From: a virus
Taxonomy: Duplodnaviria; Heunggongvirae; Uroviricota; Caudoviricetes
DNA length: 8,067 nucleotides
Virus record (IMG/VR): IMGVR_UViG_2703718825_000004
Strand: one strand, 5' to 3'
The position numbers and the translations under genes are program-made. The notes under the pieces are model-generated. The model was not told the DNA's origin. It searched no databases and saw only the letters and a program-made list of their open reading frames with translations. Of the stretch, positions 33 through 7,406 are shown one piece after another (position 1 is the first letter of the stretch; each line of letters opens with the position of its first letter).

Positions 33-188
33 TTACTCCTCAGGTTCGTAAGCTGTGAAGACAGCGACCTCCGTCTGGCCGGTTCGGATTCGTACCTCGC
101 AGAGGTCTTTCCTCGTTACCAGTGCCGTCACTATGACGGTTAAACAGATGACGATCAGGGCGATTAACATCGCCTTTTGCTGCTTCAT
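33..188 (-). CDS. hokD: Hok/Gef-family type I membrane toxin (HokD/RelF-like), 51 aa
   Basis: Minus-strand translation MKQQKAMLIALIVICLTVIVTALVTRKDLCEVRIRTGQTEVAVFTAYEPEE matches, from memory, HokD/RelF and the Hok-family pattern (one TM helix, RKDLCEV...TGQTEVAVF...YE). AAGGAG Shine-Dalgarno lies about 9 nt upstream of the ATG at 188-186. Imperfect GC-rich hairpin in the 3' region (about 3-29). Sequence identity is recalled, not searched. Confidence 0.85.
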   Translation of the reverse strand: MKQQKAMLIALIVICLTVIVTALVTRKDLCEVRIRTGQTEVAVFTAYEPEE

Positions 189-245
189 AACCTGCTTCTC
201 CTTGCCTTTCGGCGCGTAAGAGGCTAACCTACGTTTGTGAAGCAT
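33..245 (-). CDS. Mok-like in-frame upstream reading frame overlapping hok (70 aa)
   Basis: Same frame as hok, starting at ATG 245-243 (MLHKRRLASYAPKGKEKQV then MKQQ...). This resembles the MokC/HokC arrangement in which mok is an N-terminally extended frame of hok. No convincing SD before this ATG; inference. Confidence 0.4.
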   Translation of the reverse strand: MLHKRRLASYAPKGKEKQVMKQQKAMLIALIVICLTVIVTALVTRKDLCEVRIRTGQTEVAVFTAYEPEE

Positions 246-431
246 AGATTGGGCCTCAGATTAATGTTAAGCGTCTTGCAGGACGCGTAATGTTAACTGG
301 GGCTTTTCTCTGTCTGCCTTACGGTGGCATGCCCGAGGCAGACAGCCTCAAGCACCCGCAGCAATTCTACTTAACTCTCGCTTTACAGCAAACCGTTTTG
401 CCCGATATGGGAATTCCCATACGGAATGAAT

Positions 432-1832: not shown

Positions 1833-2185
1833 TTGTTGCCTCCTTTGCGAAGCTCTGCGACTAACTCGTCACATATGTGCGTCAAAGAGCAAAGTTTGAT
1901 TGCTGGATGTTCGCGCACCATCTCCACACCCTGCGCCCGCAATTCTGCCAGAAAAGCGTAGGGGTCAGTTTTTTCACTGTGGTACATGGCATCATAGATA
2001 ATCATTGCAGCGACACCTGCCTGTCCTGCATCTGTGACGGATATATGCTCAAGGGCTACGGCCATTGCGTGTTTCAACCTCTCATTTTCCACCTCAAGCA
2101 CCACACGATTAGCCTCCAGCTCTTCTATGCGTTTTTTTGCTGCTCCCAGCTCAACACGCAGCTCCTGATAGTTAATCTCGCTCAT
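1829..2185 (-). CDS. Hypothetical phage protein, 118 aa, N-terminal coiled-coil
   Basis: ATG 2185-2183 overlaps the upstream stop (ATGA). SD GGGAGGAAGGAGA immediately upstream. N-terminus (ELRVELGAAKKRIEELEANRVVLEVENERLKHAM) looks coiled-coil. Confidence 0.65.
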   Translation of the reverse strand: MSEINYQELRVELGAAKKRIEELEANRVVLEVENERLKHAMAVALEHISVTDAGQAGVAAMIIYDAMYHSEKTDPYAFLAELRAQGVEMVREHPAIKLCSLTHICDELVAELRKGGNK

Positions 2186-2406
2186 TCTCCTTCCTCCCGC
2201 ACTGCTGTTTTATATGCCCGAAGCACATGCGATGTTTTTCCTGACACAGTGCTTCTCAGAAAGAAAATTCCACTGGTGTTTATTACCAGATACGGGTCAG
2301 CAAGACGCAGCATATCCAGTATGTGATTATGTTTTCTTGTTTCCAGCACCGTACTGGAAATAAGCATATGTGACACGGGGCCGAAATCATGATATCTGAT
2401 TTTCAT
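2182..2406 (-). CDS. Hypothetical phage protein, 74 aa
   Basis: ATG 2406-2404 with AGGGTGA SD-like motif. First gene of a four-gene translationally coupled chain (2406 down to 1336). Confidence 0.55.
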   Translation of the reverse strand: MKIRYHDFGPVSHMLISSTVLETRKHNHILDMLRLADPYLVINTSGIFFLRSTVSGKTSHVLRAYKTAVREEGE

Positions 2407-2427
2407 ATCATCACCCTGCTGTAAAAA

Positions 2428-3126
2428 TTACCCGTTATCTCCTGTCGTTATTTTCTGTATGACATCACGATGCTTATTAATTTCCCGCAGCGCGGCGCAT
2501 AAGCGCTCCCACTTCTGAACCTGACCTTTTGCCCGGCGCAGCTCGCGGTTAGCCACATGCAGCGATGGTAAAATCAGACCATCCGGATGCTTTCTGATGA
2601 ACGACGACTGTGACTGCACTGTGACCGCCACACTTTCAGTTTTAATTTCTTCCTGTGTTTCCGCTTCCCGGACTGGTAACGCAACACCTGCCGGCTGAGG
2701 AAAGGCTTTACCATCGGTTTCCGTTACCGATGCAGCTTTCGGCTCTGCCGGTAAATTATCGCCCGGTATGCAGTAACGATATTGACCGTCCTGATTTACG
2801 CGAATCAGACGACCTTTGCTGACAGCCATCGCCAGTGATGAATTCGCCCGGCGGGAGGTAATCCCGAACATTAACGCCAGTTCGTCAGCCGACTGAGGAC
2901 CATGCTGTTCAATCGCGTTAATCAGCATCTCTGCAGTGGTTTTTGGGGCCGCTTCAGTTGCCTCACTCGTCAGCCACCACATCGACCCCTTGTTATCAGC
3001 TTCGCCACGACGCTTCAGCTTCCAGAGTTCGGTAACAGCATCGTCACGGCTGATTTCAAGACGGGCTGCAATCTCGTGCGACGAGGCTTTTTTCAGTGCT
3101 TTCAGTGCGTCAAAAACGGTTTCCAT
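2428..3126 (-). CDS. Hypothetical phage protein, about 232 aa, with two winged-helix-like segments (possible DNA-binding)
   Basis: ORF track frame 2428..3192. The likely start is the internal ATG at 3126-3124 (METVFDALK...), preceded by GGGAGGA at 8-nt spacing. Winged-helix assignment is inference from sequence pattern only. Confidence 0.65.
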
Positions 3127-3160
3127 TAAATTTTCCTCCCGGTAAAAATTACTTCTCAAC

Positions 3161-3823
3161 TCAGACAAAACCGGCCGCCTTCCGGCGCTCATATTCCTGT
3201 TTCAGCAATTCAATTGGCGTTGGCCCTGGCGGGCGTTTGGGTGCTGCCAGTTGTCGCCGGACTGGCGGAACACTGAGGCCATTACCAACATGCTTTGCCC
3301 ATTTCGTCAGCTGCCTTTCCACAAGCCGTTTTAACTCCCCTTCGGTCATCTGGCGCTCAATCCCCTTTGAACGCATCTCGAGGCAAATGTGGTACAGCAC
3401 CGGCTGTGGCCACGGGTATTTATCACTCCCGTCGTACCGCCAGGATTCATTCCTCCAGCGACGGTATTCCTCCATCACGGCATCCACCGTCAGGCCAAAT
3501 GGATTTGCCCCGCTCTCCGAAATCAACGCCACAAACTCAGCCAGATCCGGAGGCCACGTTTCACCCGCCCGGCAGCGGTCCATGCACCGACGGCAGATCT
3601 GCCGGATTTGCTGTTCAGTCATCGCGCCAATCTGAGCAATCCAGAGTTTCGACGGCGCAGCCCCGTTCTTCTGAGTCCAGCGGTTCGAATACACCTCCCC
3701 CATAAGCTCCCACAGCTTCCAGGCCGTTTCCGTTGCTGATAAATCCGTTTTCACGTTCCCACTGTTCGCGTGCAGCCCGGATTTCCTGAACTGCCCGTGA
3801 TGCGGTGCCACCTGGTGCTGCAT
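3161..3823 (-). CDS. Lambda-P-like replication protein (DnaB helicase loader)
   Basis: Translation is co-linear with lambda P as recalled (e.g. [13 protein letters not shown] vs PSPGQFVAWCREE; [16 protein letters not shown] vs YPWKSNAHYWLVTNLYQNMR; [13 protein letters not shown] vs TDAELRRKAADEL). Start is uncertain: ATG 3823 has SD AAGGGGG but overlaps the O-like gene by 209 nt; alternative ATGs at 3703 (SD TGGGAG) and 3622 (8-nt overlap with the O-like stop). Confidence 0.7.
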
Positions 3824-4652
3824 GGCTTACCCCCTTGCTGACTGGTTTTACCTGTGCCCTGACGTGCTGCACGTGGCGGGCAAATTTCTGCTCCCACTGA
3901 ACCTGCGTGAAAACCTTCCCCTCCGCCATCCAGTAATCCCGGAATGCGGCAAGCTCAGCAGGTGTAAACTCAGGCTCAGGCAGAGCCATACCCCACACTG
4001 CTGCCCGCTGTCGAAAATCCGGCGACGGTTGCCAGACTCCAGTCATCGGAAATTTCCCGATCGGTTCGCTCAGGCCGTCCAGGTATTCAGGTTCGGCTGT
4101 CTGCAACGACGCGTCATTCAACTCACCGGTCGTAGCACTCTCGCGCATGCGCGCGTTATGTGTGGGGTTTAATTCTTTATCTGTATCTGTATCTGTCGTG
4201 ATTTGTCGTGACATATGCGTGACGCGTCGTGACTCATCGTGACAATCAGTGTTCTGCTTCCGCAGTCTTTCCCGCTCCCGCTGCGCTCTCTTGCGCTCTG
4301 CCGGGGATTTTGCGGTTTGCGAAACATTACCGTTATCCTCCTTCATCACCTGGCGTTTTTCCCATCCGGAAATAAGATCACCATCCAGAACTCGCCCCTG
4401 CATTGCATGCAAAATTGAATCAATCACGTCTTCCGTCACATCAAGCGCACTTGCTAAATCTTCCGTCGTGACATCAATGTGACCACGTAGTGACACGCCG
4501 TGACATGTCGTGACATTTCGTGACGCACTCACCAGAAGGTGGATATACACCGCCATCACTGTTGCGATTGGCTGTCCTGAGACCCTGGCAATGGTTCGCC
4601 ATTTGGGATCATTTGGCATGTCATGCCACAATCTGAGCCAGGCATTAGCCAT
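3615..4652 (-). CDS. Replication initiator (lambda-O-like / replisome organizer), about 345 aa
   Basis: Lies immediately upstream of the P-like gene. Likely start ATG 4652-4650 (MANAWLRLWHDMPNDPKWR...) with SD GAGGTGA; the ORF track starts at GTG 4658. Two clusters of GTGAC direct repeats at about 10-bp spacing lie inside the gene, as the ori iterons do in lambda O. N-terminal WLRL...ATVMAVYIHLL resembles replisome-organizer N-termini (inference). Confidence 0.7.
   Translation of the reverse strand: MANAWLRLWHDMPNDPKWRTIARVSGQPIATVMAVYIHLLVSASRNVTTCHGVSLRGHIDVTTEDLASALDVTEDVIDSILHAMQGRVLDGDLISGWEKRQVMKEDNGNVSQTAKSPAERKRAQRERERLRKQNTDCHDESRRVTHMSRQITTDTDTDKELNPTHNARMRESATTGELNDASLQTAEPEYLDGLSEPIGKFPMTGVWQPSPDFRQRAAVWGMALPEPEFTPAELAAFRDYWMAEGKVFTQVQWEQKFARHVQHVRAQVKPVSKGVSHAAPGGTASRAVQEIRAAREQWERENGFISNGNGLEAVGAYGGGVFEPLDSEERGCAVETLDCSDWRDD
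4196..4243. repeat. Iteron-like direct repeats, cluster 1 (five copies of CGTGA(C/T), about 10-bp period), putative ori core
   Basis: Seen directly: tgtCGTGAtttgtCGTGACatatgCGTGACgcgtCGTGACtcatCGTGACaatc. Flanked at 4167-4195 by an AT-rich tract that includes (TATCTG)x3, and by the palindrome CGCGCATGCGCG at 4143-4154. Confidence 0.55.
4468..4523. repeat. Iteron-like direct repeats, cluster 2 (six copies of GTGAC, 10-11-bp period)
   Basis: Seen directly: cGTGACatcaatGTGACcacgtaGTGACacgccGTGACatgtcGTGACatttcGTGACg, in the same orientation as cluster 1, within the 5' part of the O-like gene. Confidence 0.5.
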
Positions 4653-4720
4653 ACTCACCTCATCTGATACCGAACTTTACCCTCGAACATCCGGAATAAA
4701 TCCGGCATGAATATTGTTGG

Positions 4721-5146
4721 TCAATGCACGACAACAGCATTACCAGGCTGACCACCACTGTTAGTCAGGGTGCCCCAGGCGATCGCCGCTGCGACAAAAT
4801 CATCCACATCTTTCACCAGCCGATCCCTCCGTTCGACGATCTCACGGTAATATTCAGAGCTGTGACTGCGCATACGGGCCACCAGCAGAGGCGGCATTGC
4901 CTTTTCGATCGCCGGTAACAGAGCCTGAATTTTTTCAACAGCATCAGGGGTGTCTTTATCCAGCCAACGGAAAATTTTCTGGGTATTACGAGCCAGGGCT
5001 TCCGGATGGCTGTCGTCGTACAGTTCCGGGAACGTCATCCCCAGCTCGAAATAAGTCCGGGCTATTTCAGCTGCAGGAACTTTCTCACCGTCCGGATAGG
5101 CCCAGGCATTGATCGCCATGCGGATGTGCTCATGTTTGATTTTCAT
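4721..5146 (-). CDS. ydaT: YdaT-family protein (CII-position regulator of Rac-type prophages), 141 aa
   Basis: Starts MKIKHEHI and ends VVVH, as Rac YdaT does from memory. ATG 5146-5144 overlaps the Cro-like stop (ATGA). Sits in the cII position between cro and O. Confidence 0.75.
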   Translation of the reverse strand: MKIKHEHIRMAINAWAYPDGEKVPAAEIARTYFELGMTFPELYDDSHPEALARNTQKIFRWLDKDTPDAVEKIQALLPAIEKAMPPLLVARMRSHSSEYYREIVERRDRLVKDVDDFVAAAIAWGTLTNSGGQPGNAVVVH

Positions 5147-5370
5147 GAATCCCCCTTTCCTTCGCCCTGAGTGGTATCCTTCTTTTTGTAAAGTTCTGGG
5201 TTCAAAGATAATTTCCCCTTGGAGTATGCAGCAGCTTCCGCAGCCCTCCCCTTCGGAACTATTTCACCAGGACGCTTACGCCACATGTAAATAGCTTCGC
5301 GGGTTATCCCATAAAAATCGGCAACCCTCTGAACAGAACCAAAAAACTGGACAAGTTCATCAACTCGCAT
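5143..5370 (-). CDS. Cro-like HTH regulator (DicC/YdaS family), 75 aa
   Basis: Divergent from the CI-like repressor. SD GGAGGT 4 nt upstream of ATG 5370. Pattern L..FGS...VA...GI...IY.W.....VP.GRA shared with DicC as recalled. Confidence 0.8.
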   Translation of the reverse strand: MRVDELVQFFGSVQRVADFYGITREAIYMWRKRPGEIVPKGRAAEAAAYSKGKLSLNPELYKKKDTTQGEGKGDS

Positions 5371-5464
5371 TTTACCTCCTAAATCTAAGTATTTTTAGAT
5401 TACAAGATAATTTTTTTTAGGTCAATGCAATCTAAAATAATTTATATTCAATTTGCAGGAGAAA
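5371..5464. promoter_or_regulatory. OR-like divergent promoter/operator region between the cro-like and cI-like genes
   Basis: 94-bp AT-rich intergenic region. Inverted repeat AATCTAAgtatttTTAGATT at 5382-5401, and a second inverted repeat TTTTAG-N11-CTAAAA at 5415-5437. -10-like TATATT at 5443-5448 for the cI-like gene; TTGACC-N17-TAATCT on the minus strand for the cro-like gene. Confidence 0.6.
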
Positions 5465-6112
5465 ATGATGGAAAGCCTTGGCATCAGGCTTAAGAGACTT
5501 AGAAAAGATAAGGGGCTGACCCAAGTAGAACTGGGTAAGCTTTCAGGCGTGACTGGGGTTACTATAGGGTACTGGGAGAAAGATCTAAACGAACCAGGTA
5601 GCAAAGCTCTAAGTAAGTTAGCCCAGGCATTAGGAACTACTGAGTCCTATCTCCTATATGGAGTATCGTCTCCTGAATTATCTTTTGTACAAAGTACCTC
5701 AGGCACCAAGATCCCCTACCTTTCGTGGGGTGAGGCGATTTCTTTCCTAATCTTAAAAGGAGAGAAAACAATGGGAAATGTCGATAGGATCACCACATTC
5801 TTTGATGTCGAGGAAGGTGATTTTGCCGTTTCAATGCCTGATGACACAATGCATAACCCATCAGGATCACCGAGTATCCCAGTTGGTGCTACTGTGATCC
5901 TAAGGCCAGGAGAAAGTTATAAAAATGGCAGCATCGTCGCTGTAATAGTTCCGGATCCGCTTAAAAATGAACCATCTATGACTATAAAGAAATTAGTTAT
6001 TGATGGGAAGCTTGTGTATTTAAGCCCTCTCAATCCACGCTATCAGTCATCCTTACTTACACCAGAGTGTAAAATTGTTGCCGTAGCAAAAGGTGTACAG
6101 TTCAACTTATAA
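5465..6112 (+). CDS. Lambda-CI-like prophage repressor (N-terminal HTH_XRE plus C-terminal LexA-like S24 peptidase domain)
   Basis: N-terminal LGIRLKRLRKDKGLTQVELGKLSGVTGVTIGYWEK is a classic XRE HTH. C-terminal region has the S24 Ser motif (AVSMPD) and Lys motif (TIKKLVIDGKLVYLSPLNPRY, close to lambda cI [20 protein letters not shown]). The ORF track starts at TTG 5453; ATG at 5465 or 5468 follows AGGAG at 5457-5461. Confidence 0.9.
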   Translation: MMESLGIRLKRLRKDKGLTQVELGKLSGVTGVTIGYWEKDLNEPGSKALSKLAQALGTTESYLLYGVSSPELSFVQSTSGTKIPYLSWGEAISFLILKGEKTMGNVDRITTFFDVEEGDFAVSMPDDTMHNPSGSPSIPVGATVILRPGESYKNGSIVAVIVPDPLKNEPSMTIKKLVIDGKLVYLSPLNPRYQSSLLTPECKIVAVAKGVQFNL

Positions 6113-6387: not shown

Positions 6388-6540
6388 ATGGATATGCTCA
6401 ATCTTGGCAACAATGAATCTCTGGTGTGCGGAGTATTCCCCAACCACGACGGCACGTTTACCGCGATGACGTATACCAGAAGTAAAACGTTTAAAACCGA
6501 AGCTGGCGCGCATCGCTGGTTAGCAAGAAACGCTAACTGA
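6388..6540 (+). CDS. Small protein, 50 aa (YdfA-like by position)
   Basis: ATG 6388 preceded by SD TGAGGT at 5-nt spacing. Translation MDMLNLGNNESLVCGVFPNHDGTFTAMTYTRSKTFKTEAGAHRWLARNAN. Below the ORF-track cutoff. The YdfA equivalence rests on gene order in the K-12 dicA-ydfABC-dicF-dicB operon and is not sequence-verified. Confidence 0.5.
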   Translation: MDMLNLGNNESLVCGVFPNHDGTFTAMTYTRSKTFKTEAGAHRWLARNAN

Positions 6541-6802: not shown

Positions 6803-6855
6803 TTTCTGGTGACGTTTGGCGGTATCAGTTTTACTCCGTGACTGCTCTGCCGCCC
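6803..6855 (+). ncRNA. dicF: DicF small regulatory RNA (ftsZ-targeting sRNA of the Qin-type dicB operon)
   Basis: Sequence TTTCTGGTGACGTTTGGCGGTATCAGTTTTACTCCGTGACTGCTCTGCCGCCC matches the 53-nt DicF sequence as I recall it, followed by a T5 tail (6856-6860). It sits immediately upstream of dicB as in K-12. Confidence 0.85.
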
Positions 6856-7029: not shown

Positions 7030-7218
7030 ATGGAAACGTTATTACCAAACGTTAATACGTCTGAAGGTTGTTTTGAAATTGGTGTCACTATCAGTAACCC
7101 TGTATTTACTGAAGATGCCATTAACAAGAGAAAACACGAACGGGAGTTATTAAATAAAATATGCATTCTTTCAATGCTGGCCCGTTTACGTCCGATACAA
7201 AAAGGATGCTGGCAATGA
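7030..7218 (+). CDS. dicB: DicB cell-division inhibitor (MinC-activating), 62 aa
   Basis: Translation METLLPNVNTSEGCFEIGVTISNPVFTEDAINKRKHERELLNKICILSMLARLRPIQKGCWQ matches DicB as recalled. SD GAGGA 7 nt upstream of ATG 7030. The ORF-track frame 6925..7218 is an upstream extension crossing the DicF terminator. Confidence 0.9.
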   Translation: METLLPNVNTSEGCFEIGVTISNPVFTEDAINKRKHERELLNKICILSMLARLRPIQKGCWQ

Positions 7219-7406
7219 ATACAGCATTTGCACTTGTTCTGACAGTTTTTCTTGTTTCCGGAGAGCCAGTTGATATTGCAGTCAGTGTTCACAGGACAAT
7301 GCAGGAGTGTGTGACTGCAGCAACCGAACAGAAAATTCCCGGTAACTGTTACCCTGTCGATAAAGTTATTCACCAGGATAATAACGAAATCCCGGCAGGT
7401 CTTTAA
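7215..7406 (+). CDS. ydfD: YdfD (Qin-type prophage lysis-associated small membrane protein), 63 aa
   Basis: ATG 7215 overlaps the dicB stop (ATGA). Translation MNTAFALVLTVFLVSGEPVDIAVSVHRTMQEC... with an N-terminal TM helix; matches YdfD position and, from memory, sequence. The ORF-track frame starts earlier at 7161. Confidence 0.85.
   Translation: MNTAFALVLTVFLVSGEPVDIAVSVHRTMQECVTAATEQKIPGNCYPVDKVIHQDNNEIPAGL

Follow-up and report, generated by a model that had tools for sequence, protein, structure and literature searches.

A probable iteron-type replication origin with two repeat arrays inside the initiator gene of a lambdoid prophage of Escherichia coli O157

The location of a replication origin inside the gene of its own initiator is textbook knowledge for phage lambda, SPP1, and the lactococcal phages. 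The origin of lambda (ori lambda) contains four iterons of about 19 bp each with dyad symmetry, and a palindrome lies beyond its A+T-rich region. In the lactococcal phages TP901-1 (ORF13) and Tuc2009 (Rep2009; PF09681), the direct repeats of the origin are found inside the replisome-organiser gene. Short direct repeats of 6–8 bp, arranged in two clusters and served by one initiator, occur in the ori and crr of phage P4 and in the origins of the Staphylococcus aureus pathogenicity islands (SaPI). The initiators of these elements are primase-helicases or helicases, none of the sites overlaps the codons of a folded initiator domain, and in SaPI the two iteron sets enclose the A+T region. In SPP1, gp38 binds the oriL repeats inside gene 38 beside an A+T-rich unwinding element, and 356 bp of oriL suffice for replication in vitro (PMC6316719, PMC5737612). 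Here, we describe a comparable locus on an 8,067-nt stretch of DNA, referred to as the window, from a virus of the Caudoviricetes (IMG/VR record IMGVR_UViG_2703718825_000004). The gene of a predicted replication initiator (3615–4658, minus strand, 347 residues) encloses two arrays of short repeats and an A+T-rich tract, and the segment 4139–4524 is probably the iteron-type theta replication origin of this prophage.

The pentamer GTGAC occurs 28 times in the window versus 12.7 ± 3.5 expected copies, and none of 200 dinucleotide-preserving shuffles reached this number. Ten of the 28 copies belong to two arrays on one strand. In array B (4196–4243, plus strand), the iteron TCGTGA(C/T) occurs five times head to tail; its form on the coding strand of the gene is GTCACGA. 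The individual copies are TCGTGAT at 4196, TCGTGAC at 4206, GCGTGAC at 4217, and TCGTGAC at 4227 and 4237, with a spacing of 10, 11, 10, and 10 bp. Array A (4466–4524, plus strand) comprises six iterons, whose GTGAC cores start at 4468, 4479, 4490, 4500, 4510, and 4520 (spacing 11, 11, 10, 10, and 10 bp) and which read, including their flanks, TCGTGAC, ATGTGAC, TAGTGAC, CCGTGAC, TCGTGAC, and TCGTGAC. The arrays are separated by approximately 230 bp, and Tandem Repeats Finder returned a period of 10 for both of them. The iteron cores are asymmetric, about 7 bp long, and repeated head to tail every 10–11 bp. Array B overlies the codons for residues 139–155 (SRRVTHMSRQITT) in the linker of the protein, array A those for residues 45–64, corresponding to the end of helix 3 and a low-confidence loop in front of the helix-turn-helix of the structural model. 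The original prediction, derived from the letters of the window, had proposed two one-strand clusters with a spacing of about one helical turn, one with five CGTGA(C/T) copies at 4196–4243 in the central linker codons and one with six GTGAC copies. Copy lists, shuffles, and Tandem Repeats Finder bear this out, except that the second array ends at 4524 rather than 4523. Absent from that prediction was a single inverted iteron core (4435–4439, minus strand; GTGAC on the coding strand, codons D73-V74-T75), located about 30 bp promoter-distal of array A. It occupies the same place in most loci of the GTCAC motif class described below, with codon V74 being GTG in 17 of 17 relatives. In some loci of the CGAACG class, an inverted CGTTCG follows directly after array A.

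Toward the 3' end of the gene, array B is succeeded by the A+T-rich tract TTTAATTCTTTATCTGTATCTGTATCTG (4168–4195), which codes for TDTDTDKELN and represents a candidate DNA-unwinding element, then by a GC palindrome, and then by the codons of the C-terminal domain (C-domain). The 30-nt segment 4170–4199 has a G+C content of 0.30, the minimum of the entire gene (mean ~0.54), which agrees with the A+T-rich tract predicted to follow the first cluster. The predicted palindrome CGCGCATGCGCG is likewise present, although at 4142–4153, that is, one base to the left of the proposed position 4143–4154. It is contained in a conserved element next to the A+T tract (4139–4170; coding strand AAACCCCACACAnAAnCGCGCnnGCGCGAG), which scores on the plus strand as a hairpin followed by a T-run. 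AAACCCCACACAnAAnCGCGCnnGCGCGAG is common to the window (E. coli), to loci of E. albertii (L008), Sphingomonas (L010), and Serratia (L011), and to Rac-SA53, and it is read in different frames among these loci (NPTHNARMRE, TPHIKRAGAI, and TPHNAHVRE). Thus, conservation at the DNA level is indicated. In 28 of 33 loci, a GATAAAGAT or GATACAGAT run (peptide DKDK or DTDT) begins 0–8 nt downstream of the final array-B copy. The window and these 28 relatives therefore have in common the order known from lambda, with iterons behind the N-terminal domain (N-domain) and an A+T tract next to them. A perfect palindrome of 15 bp, TGGCATGTCATGCCA, is located at 4614–4628 in the initiator codons W11-H12-D13-M14-P15. 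It contains an inverted iteron-like GTCAT, and 18 of 19 relatives have GAC at codon D13, which is more fixed than the neighbouring codons.

The likeness to ori lambda extends further. In both cases, the origin lies in the linker codons after a DNA-binding N-domain within the initiator gene (origin and DNA binding being putative in the window), and the iterons, the A+T-rich tract, the palindrome, and a C-domain working with the loader come in that order. A P-family loader gene with an overlapping start is next, and mosaic exchange occurs between a module of N-domain plus iterons and the C-domain. The window differs from lambda in its initiator, which has no lambda O match and a DnaT-like C-domain, and in its 7-bp asymmetric cores, iterons of ~19 bp with dyad symmetry not being found in the window. 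A further difference is the second array in the part of the gene that codes for the N-domain. With SPP1 oriL (gene 38; G38P organiser, G39P loader, G40P helicase), the window has in common the repeats inside the gene of the encoded protein and the adjoining A+T element; the sequence of gene 38 contains mid-gene repeats followed by an A-rich run. In contrast, the second site set of SPP1 (oriR) is a separate locus kilobases away, whereas the second array of the window resides in the same gene, and the N-domains have no detectable homology (hhalign probability 0.1 against G38P). P4 and SaPI resemble the window by their short direct repeats in two separate clusters, but the A+T tract of the window lies beyond array B and not between the clusters as in SaPI. 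As to the lactococcal organisers, the N-domain of the window protein aligns weakly, end to end, with PF09681 (16.3 bits, cut-off 23.3, E 0.0097, model positions 1–116 of 121) and with TIGR01714 (18.2 bits, cut-off 49.8). Both scores are under the cut-offs, and therefore membership in the replisome-organiser families is not established.

As expected for an iteron origin, the repeats are conserved for their own sake. We aligned the proteins of 20 loci, which had been picked by peptide only, and analysed codon usage after excluding the window and its two close relatives, leaving 17 loci from other genera. Alignment columns with a conserved amino acid were considered, and a column counted as inside if its third base fell in an iteron core of the window. 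The median normalised codon entropy was 0.0 in the 12 iteron-core columns versus 0.84 in the 64 other columns (Mann–Whitney p = 1.2e-7). Counted over all 20 loci, including the three close ones, the core codons were TCA in 19 of 20 and GTC, ACG, GGT, and CAC in 20 of 20, whereas all codons were used for the same amino acids outside the repeats. Four-fold sites outside the repeats are saturated, since their pairwise identity is only 35%, and this value also counters the objection that a recent transfer of all 17 loci has produced the fixed codons. We conclude from the fixed codons in the cores and the free ones elsewhere that the repeats are under selection as nucleic acid. The 10-bp period places GTCACGA in all three frames, as xGT-CAC-GAx (C/G-H-D/E), TCA-CGA (S-R), and GTC-ACG (V-T). 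Because the period rotates through the frames, the DNA repeat yields the peptides SRNVT..RGH..VT and CHDESRxVT as by-products. Compensating indels in the array B spacers of close relatives (10/11 versus 11/10) alter the local peptide and keep the phase. Array A differs between lineages by exactly 21 bp, that is, by two units or seven codons: most relatives have four copies, and the lineage of the window has expanded by 21 bp to six. Even within E. coli, both forms exist, with four copies in 689R5 and the Shigella locus L009 and six in the window. Conservation of the repeats beyond the needs of the amino acids, and of their phase across related loci, had both been named as checks of the original prediction, which came through them unharmed. 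An apparent helical phasing between the two arrays (Rayleigh R = 0.52) is confounded by shared descent and protein length and was not used.

To survey the family, we scanned one genome per species and obtained 58 loci encoding relatives of the N-domain, with hosts among the Gamma-, Beta-, and Alphaproteobacteria, the Acidobacteria, and others. Fifty-five loci could be anchored on the invariant DPKWR peptide and were searched for phased chains, defined as at least three copies of one 5-mer at 9–12 bp spacing. A chain was present at the linker place (array B) in 49 of the 55 loci, at the N-domain place (array A) in 38, and at both places in 38. The control segments between the arrays and after array B had a chain in one and three of the 55 loci, respectively. 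The second cluster, which had been predicted as an addition to the lambda layout, is thereby borne out as a family feature, and its motif is identical to that of the linker array. Four motif classes were distinguished, namely GTCACG (~23 loci in >10 genera), CGAACG(C) (~16 loci), GTAACG (~5 loci), and GTGACGC (one locus). Within one gene, both arrays use one motif, and between lineages the motif changes. The most frequent 6-mer of region A reappeared at least twice in region B in 37 of 51 loci, and the density of the shared 6-mer was 10.8 per kb versus 0.63 per kb in the remaining gene. The encoded peptides change in parallel, as seen from ETTGNAGVTQG at both places of a Sphingomonas locus and from NATERGRTQ together with PNATERDQTP in other loci. 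Two N-domain relatives, from a metagenome-assembled genome of Serratia (L050) and from Pantoea (L062), have neither array. The segment after their N-domain resembles, as judged by eye, a GIY-YIG-type nuclease motif (YVYYV...GISxNPWAR), and CTACG / CGTAG repeats occur further downstream.

The protein encoded by the array-bearing gene is named DnaT-like ssDNA-binding domain-containing protein in RefSeq, and it matches PHROG families 1408 and 3729, both of the replication initiation category. It is composed of a winged-helix-like N-domain (residues 1 to ~100), a basic helix (residues 119–135), a low-confidence linker, and a DnaT-like C-domain (residues 203–269). The latter belongs to the DnaT DNA-binding domain family PF17948 (63.6 bits, cut-off 25). 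The NCBIfam DnaT equivalog yielded 93 bits, which is under its full-length cut-off of 201, and therefore only the DnaT domain is common to both proteins. The original prediction had called the gene O-like, a description that holds by position and analogy but not in terms of homology: a Pfam scan of the whole protein (E ≤ 0.01) gave DnaT only and no match to the lambda O family (Phage_rep_O), and the N-terminal 143 residues retrieved at E ≤ 10 only PF09681 and TetR_C_6, again without lambda O. PF09681 was not matched by any of 39 relatives at E ≤ 0.01. Weak PHROG matches to the replisome-organiser families 4880 and 5968 and to the DnaD-like family 10469 were obtained, and partial copies of the window protein carry the NCBI name 'phage replisome organizer'. 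A remote relationship of the N-domain to the N-domain of replisome organisers is, judging from these profile matches, possible. An AlphaFold2 model of residues 1–173 (mean predicted local distance difference test score, pLDDT, 70.5) comprises helices 3–16, 18–27, and 31–47, a low-confidence loop with short strands (48–64), helices 65–72 and 76–86, and a beta hairpin, the last three forming a winged-helix-like arrangement, followed by the basic helix 119–135 and, from residue 139, a low-confidence, probably disordered tail. The arrays fall in the segments of lowest confidence, with a pLDDT of ~59–78 for the loop under array A and <50 for the linker under array B.

Across the 55 loci, the N-domain is the sole constant partner of the arrays, whereas upstream and downstream genes and C-domains vary; the setting is one of replication initiation throughout. 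The N-domain and both arrays move as a unit and are combined with different C-domains. In the GTCACG class, the C-terminal halves are mutually unrelated; some are DnaT-like, one is of the SPP1 G38P type (PF09524, in the relative P0115), and others have no assignment. Phage vB_EcoS-689R5 matches the window at 4174–5400 and Rac-SA53 at 3100–4195, and on the basis of such sequence matches the A+T tract is the mosaic junction, or exchange point, between the N-terminal and C-terminal modules. The YdaU protein of Rac-SA53 (L066, locus 2016–3086) has the C-domain and the GATACAGATACAGAT tract in common with the window. Its N-domain is unrelated and of the type that RefSeq names DUF1376 in related E. 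coli genes, a label taken from RefSeq only, and repeats of another type (TGTTCAAACA / TGTTTGAACA, CAAACA) immediately precede the GATACAGATACAGAT tract in the gene. The idea that the iterons of the window are those of Rac was rejected, given the different N-domain and repeats of Rac-SA53. The repeat site in the Rac-SA53 ydaU gene is a candidate position of the Rac origin oriJ. The next gene encodes a lambda-P-like protein, a DnaB-like helicase, or a DnaC/IstB-like loader in 9 of 20 loci examined, and a tenth gave a sub-threshold G39P-like match. Isolated phages that carry the N-domain and arrays include those of Escherichia (Evi, Tritos, 689R5, and others), Aeromonas, Pseudomonas, Ralstonia, and Microcystis, with pAEv1818 and Pseudomonas phi1 as further named carriers.

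Because the arrays and the A+T stretch have been kept at the DNA level across many bacterial groups, the element is very probably a replication origin. The layout found in 49 of 55 loci and the codon test thus support the putative prophage origin with lambda-like arrangement that had been proposed, as far as sequence comparison goes. According to the mechanism we favour, early rightward transcription of cro, the ydaT-like gene, the initiator gene, and the P-like gene would provide the initiator. Its winged-helix-like N-domain would bind the 7-bp iterons head to tail, once per turn, on arrays B and A; motif co-variation and modularity support this role of the initiator as the reader of the iterons indirectly. 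The resulting nucleoprotein complex may strain and open the adjoining A+T-rich tract (4168–4195). DnaT of E. coli is a single-stranded DNA-binding component of the restart primosome, and the DnaT-like C-domain could hold the single strand and/or dock the P-like loader, through which host DnaB would be brought in. Unwinding and helicase loading are postulated by analogy with lambda O/P and SPP1 G38P/G39P/G40P. Array B and the A+T tract look like the core, since ~11 loci keep array B without array A, which is therefore not indispensable. Array A would serve as an accessory binding array that strengthens or bridges the complex, or in feedback control.

A possible, albeit less likely, variant is that only array B and the A+T tract form the origin and that array A is a control element outside the unwinding complex. 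Bound initiator might block transcription elongation, leading to autoregulation of initiator and P-like protein, or titration and handcuffing might limit re-initiation, as extra plasmid iterons do. The absence of array A from ~11 of the 49 array-B loci, indicating that it is dispensable for basic function, is compatible with such a role, as are its position, ~230 bp away from array B and remote from the A+T tract, and the shift of its copy number in two-iteron steps within E. coli (4 versus 6). However, array A has the motif and the orientation of array B, and its synonymous sites are equally strictly fixed. Moreover, a promoter scan of 3600–5500 gave no sites, so that no promoter-like site is near. 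An auxiliary part of the origin and a regulator are not distinguished by the sequence.

Several observations weigh against the assignment of 4139–4524 as an origin. Comparisons of the N-domain with characterised origin-binding domains, PF09681 and SPP1 G38P included, yielded nothing significant (see the scores given above). Foldseek against the PDB returned only weak winged-helix matches (CRP, MarR, 4pta; E > 0.06), and a PDB profile search with the N-domain sequence returned none. In addition, the A+T tract is short (~28 bp), and array A is missing in those loci that retain array B alone. For no family member did we find published binding, unwinding, or origin activity in a literature of which our coverage is incomplete, and nothing specific was found on iterons or origins of the initiator family, ydaU/ydaV, or oriJ. 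Finally, conservation alone can neither separate DNA-level from RNA-level constraint nor name the protein that reads the arrays.

The last point also bears on the idea that a factor other than the initiator recognises the arrays, for example as a partition-centromere-like site, a packaging or recombination site, or an element at the mRNA level. The parC site of plasmid R1 consists of two arrays of 10–11 bp repeats, and the geometry observed here, with two arrays of 4–6 short direct repeats at one-turn spacing, resembles it; in one relative (L019), a ParB-HTH protein is encoded downstream. We nevertheless regard another reader as very unlikely. Pfam detected no ParA, ParM, or ParR-type family among the open reading frames of the window, the likeness to a ParR/parC system being limited to the repeat geometry, and the element sits in an integrating lambdoid prophage. 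Furthermore, no partner of the arrays other than the N-domain is constant, and the abutting A+T tract together with the helicase and loader neighbours points to initiation. The codon test excludes a protein-level repeated peptide or neutral slippage, without a cis-acting role of the DNA. It is true that SRNVT..RGH..VT and HDESRxVT are conserved and that slippage-type expansion is observed, but the 10–11 bp period is no multiple of 3, runs through three frames, and creates no peptide repeat, the core codons are fixed, and both arrays switch their motif together between lineages.

The surroundings of the proposed origin are those of a lambdoid prophage of the Rac/Qin type in E. coli O157. Prophages of E. 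coli O157:H7 and of related strains match the window at 99.8–100% identity, and segment 4100–4700 was detected in 693 of the 5426 complete E. coli genomes, several O157:H7 prophages being among its carriers. The gene order corresponds to a lambdoid early region, with a LexA/cI-like repressor gene (5453–6112, plus strand), a Cro-like gene (5143–5370, minus strand), a YdaT-like gene (4721–5146, minus strand), the initiator gene, and a lambda-P-like helicase-loader gene (3161–3622, minus strand, 153 residues). The P-like protein belongs to PF06992 (59.6 bits, cut-off 26) and to PHROG 109 (P-like helicase loader, 2.6e-53). Its coordinates are the window counterpart of the RefSeq annotation, in which relatives are named 'replication protein P', have 153 residues, and show the same 8-nt overlap between the ATG of the P-like gene and the initiator stop that is found here (ATGACTGA). 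On the long open reading frame (220 residues, start 3823), the Pfam match already sets in 13 residues ahead of the RefSeq-type start at 3622, and PHROG 15931 (482 positions) spans the initiator (1–347) and the P-like protein (331–482), as though some phages encoded the two as a single protein. A different true start of the P-like gene, or a fusion or frameshift form, is conceivable. At one end of the window lies a hok/sok type I toxin–antitoxin locus (33–357, minus strand), with an open reading frame of the Hok/Gef family (33–245, minus strand; PF01848, 81.6 bits) and the sok antisense RNA (183–357, minus strand; RF01794, 114.9 bits). The small RNA DicF (6804–6855, plus strand; RF00039, 76.7 bits) is flanked by a DUF1391 (ydfA-like) open reading frame upstream (6388–6540) and a DUF1482 open reading frame downstream (7161–7406), which together represent a Qin/Rac-type dicB-operon region beside the repressor gene.

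In the searchable literature, which we covered incompletely, no earlier description of the two-array origin layout was found. The locus is set apart by the combination of an uncharacterised N-domain with a DnaT-like C-domain, by the one-turn spacing of very short, asymmetric iterons, by the overprinting of the second array on a surface loop of the predicted DNA-binding domain, and by the conservation of the two-array layout over several bacterial phyla with at least four motif classes. The loop encoded by array A (residues 45–64) is the most variable segment of the N-domain, lies just before the helix-turn-helix and beside the wing, and necessarily changes whenever the iteron changes. It is conceivable, though improbable in our estimation, that this loop itself reads the variable iteron bases and acts as the specificity determinant. 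If so, one stretch of DNA would serve as the binding site and at the same time encode the determinant of its own recognition, recombination could never part the site from its reader, and new specificities (GTCACG, CGAACG, GTAACG, GTGACG) would arise in one step.

The locus is a clear and quantifiable case of a cis-acting DNA element overprinted on protein-coding sequence. The by-product peptides SRNVT..RGH and HDESRxVT call for caution when 'conserved motifs' in these proteins are interpreted. At least four natural iteron specificities on one scaffold may be useful for studying the evolution of origin specificity and for orthogonal replicons. The replication module, which is carried by about one-eighth of the complete E. 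coli genomes and also by phages of Pseudomonas, Aeromonas, Ralstonia, and others, had no described origin, and a probable one can now be assigned to it.

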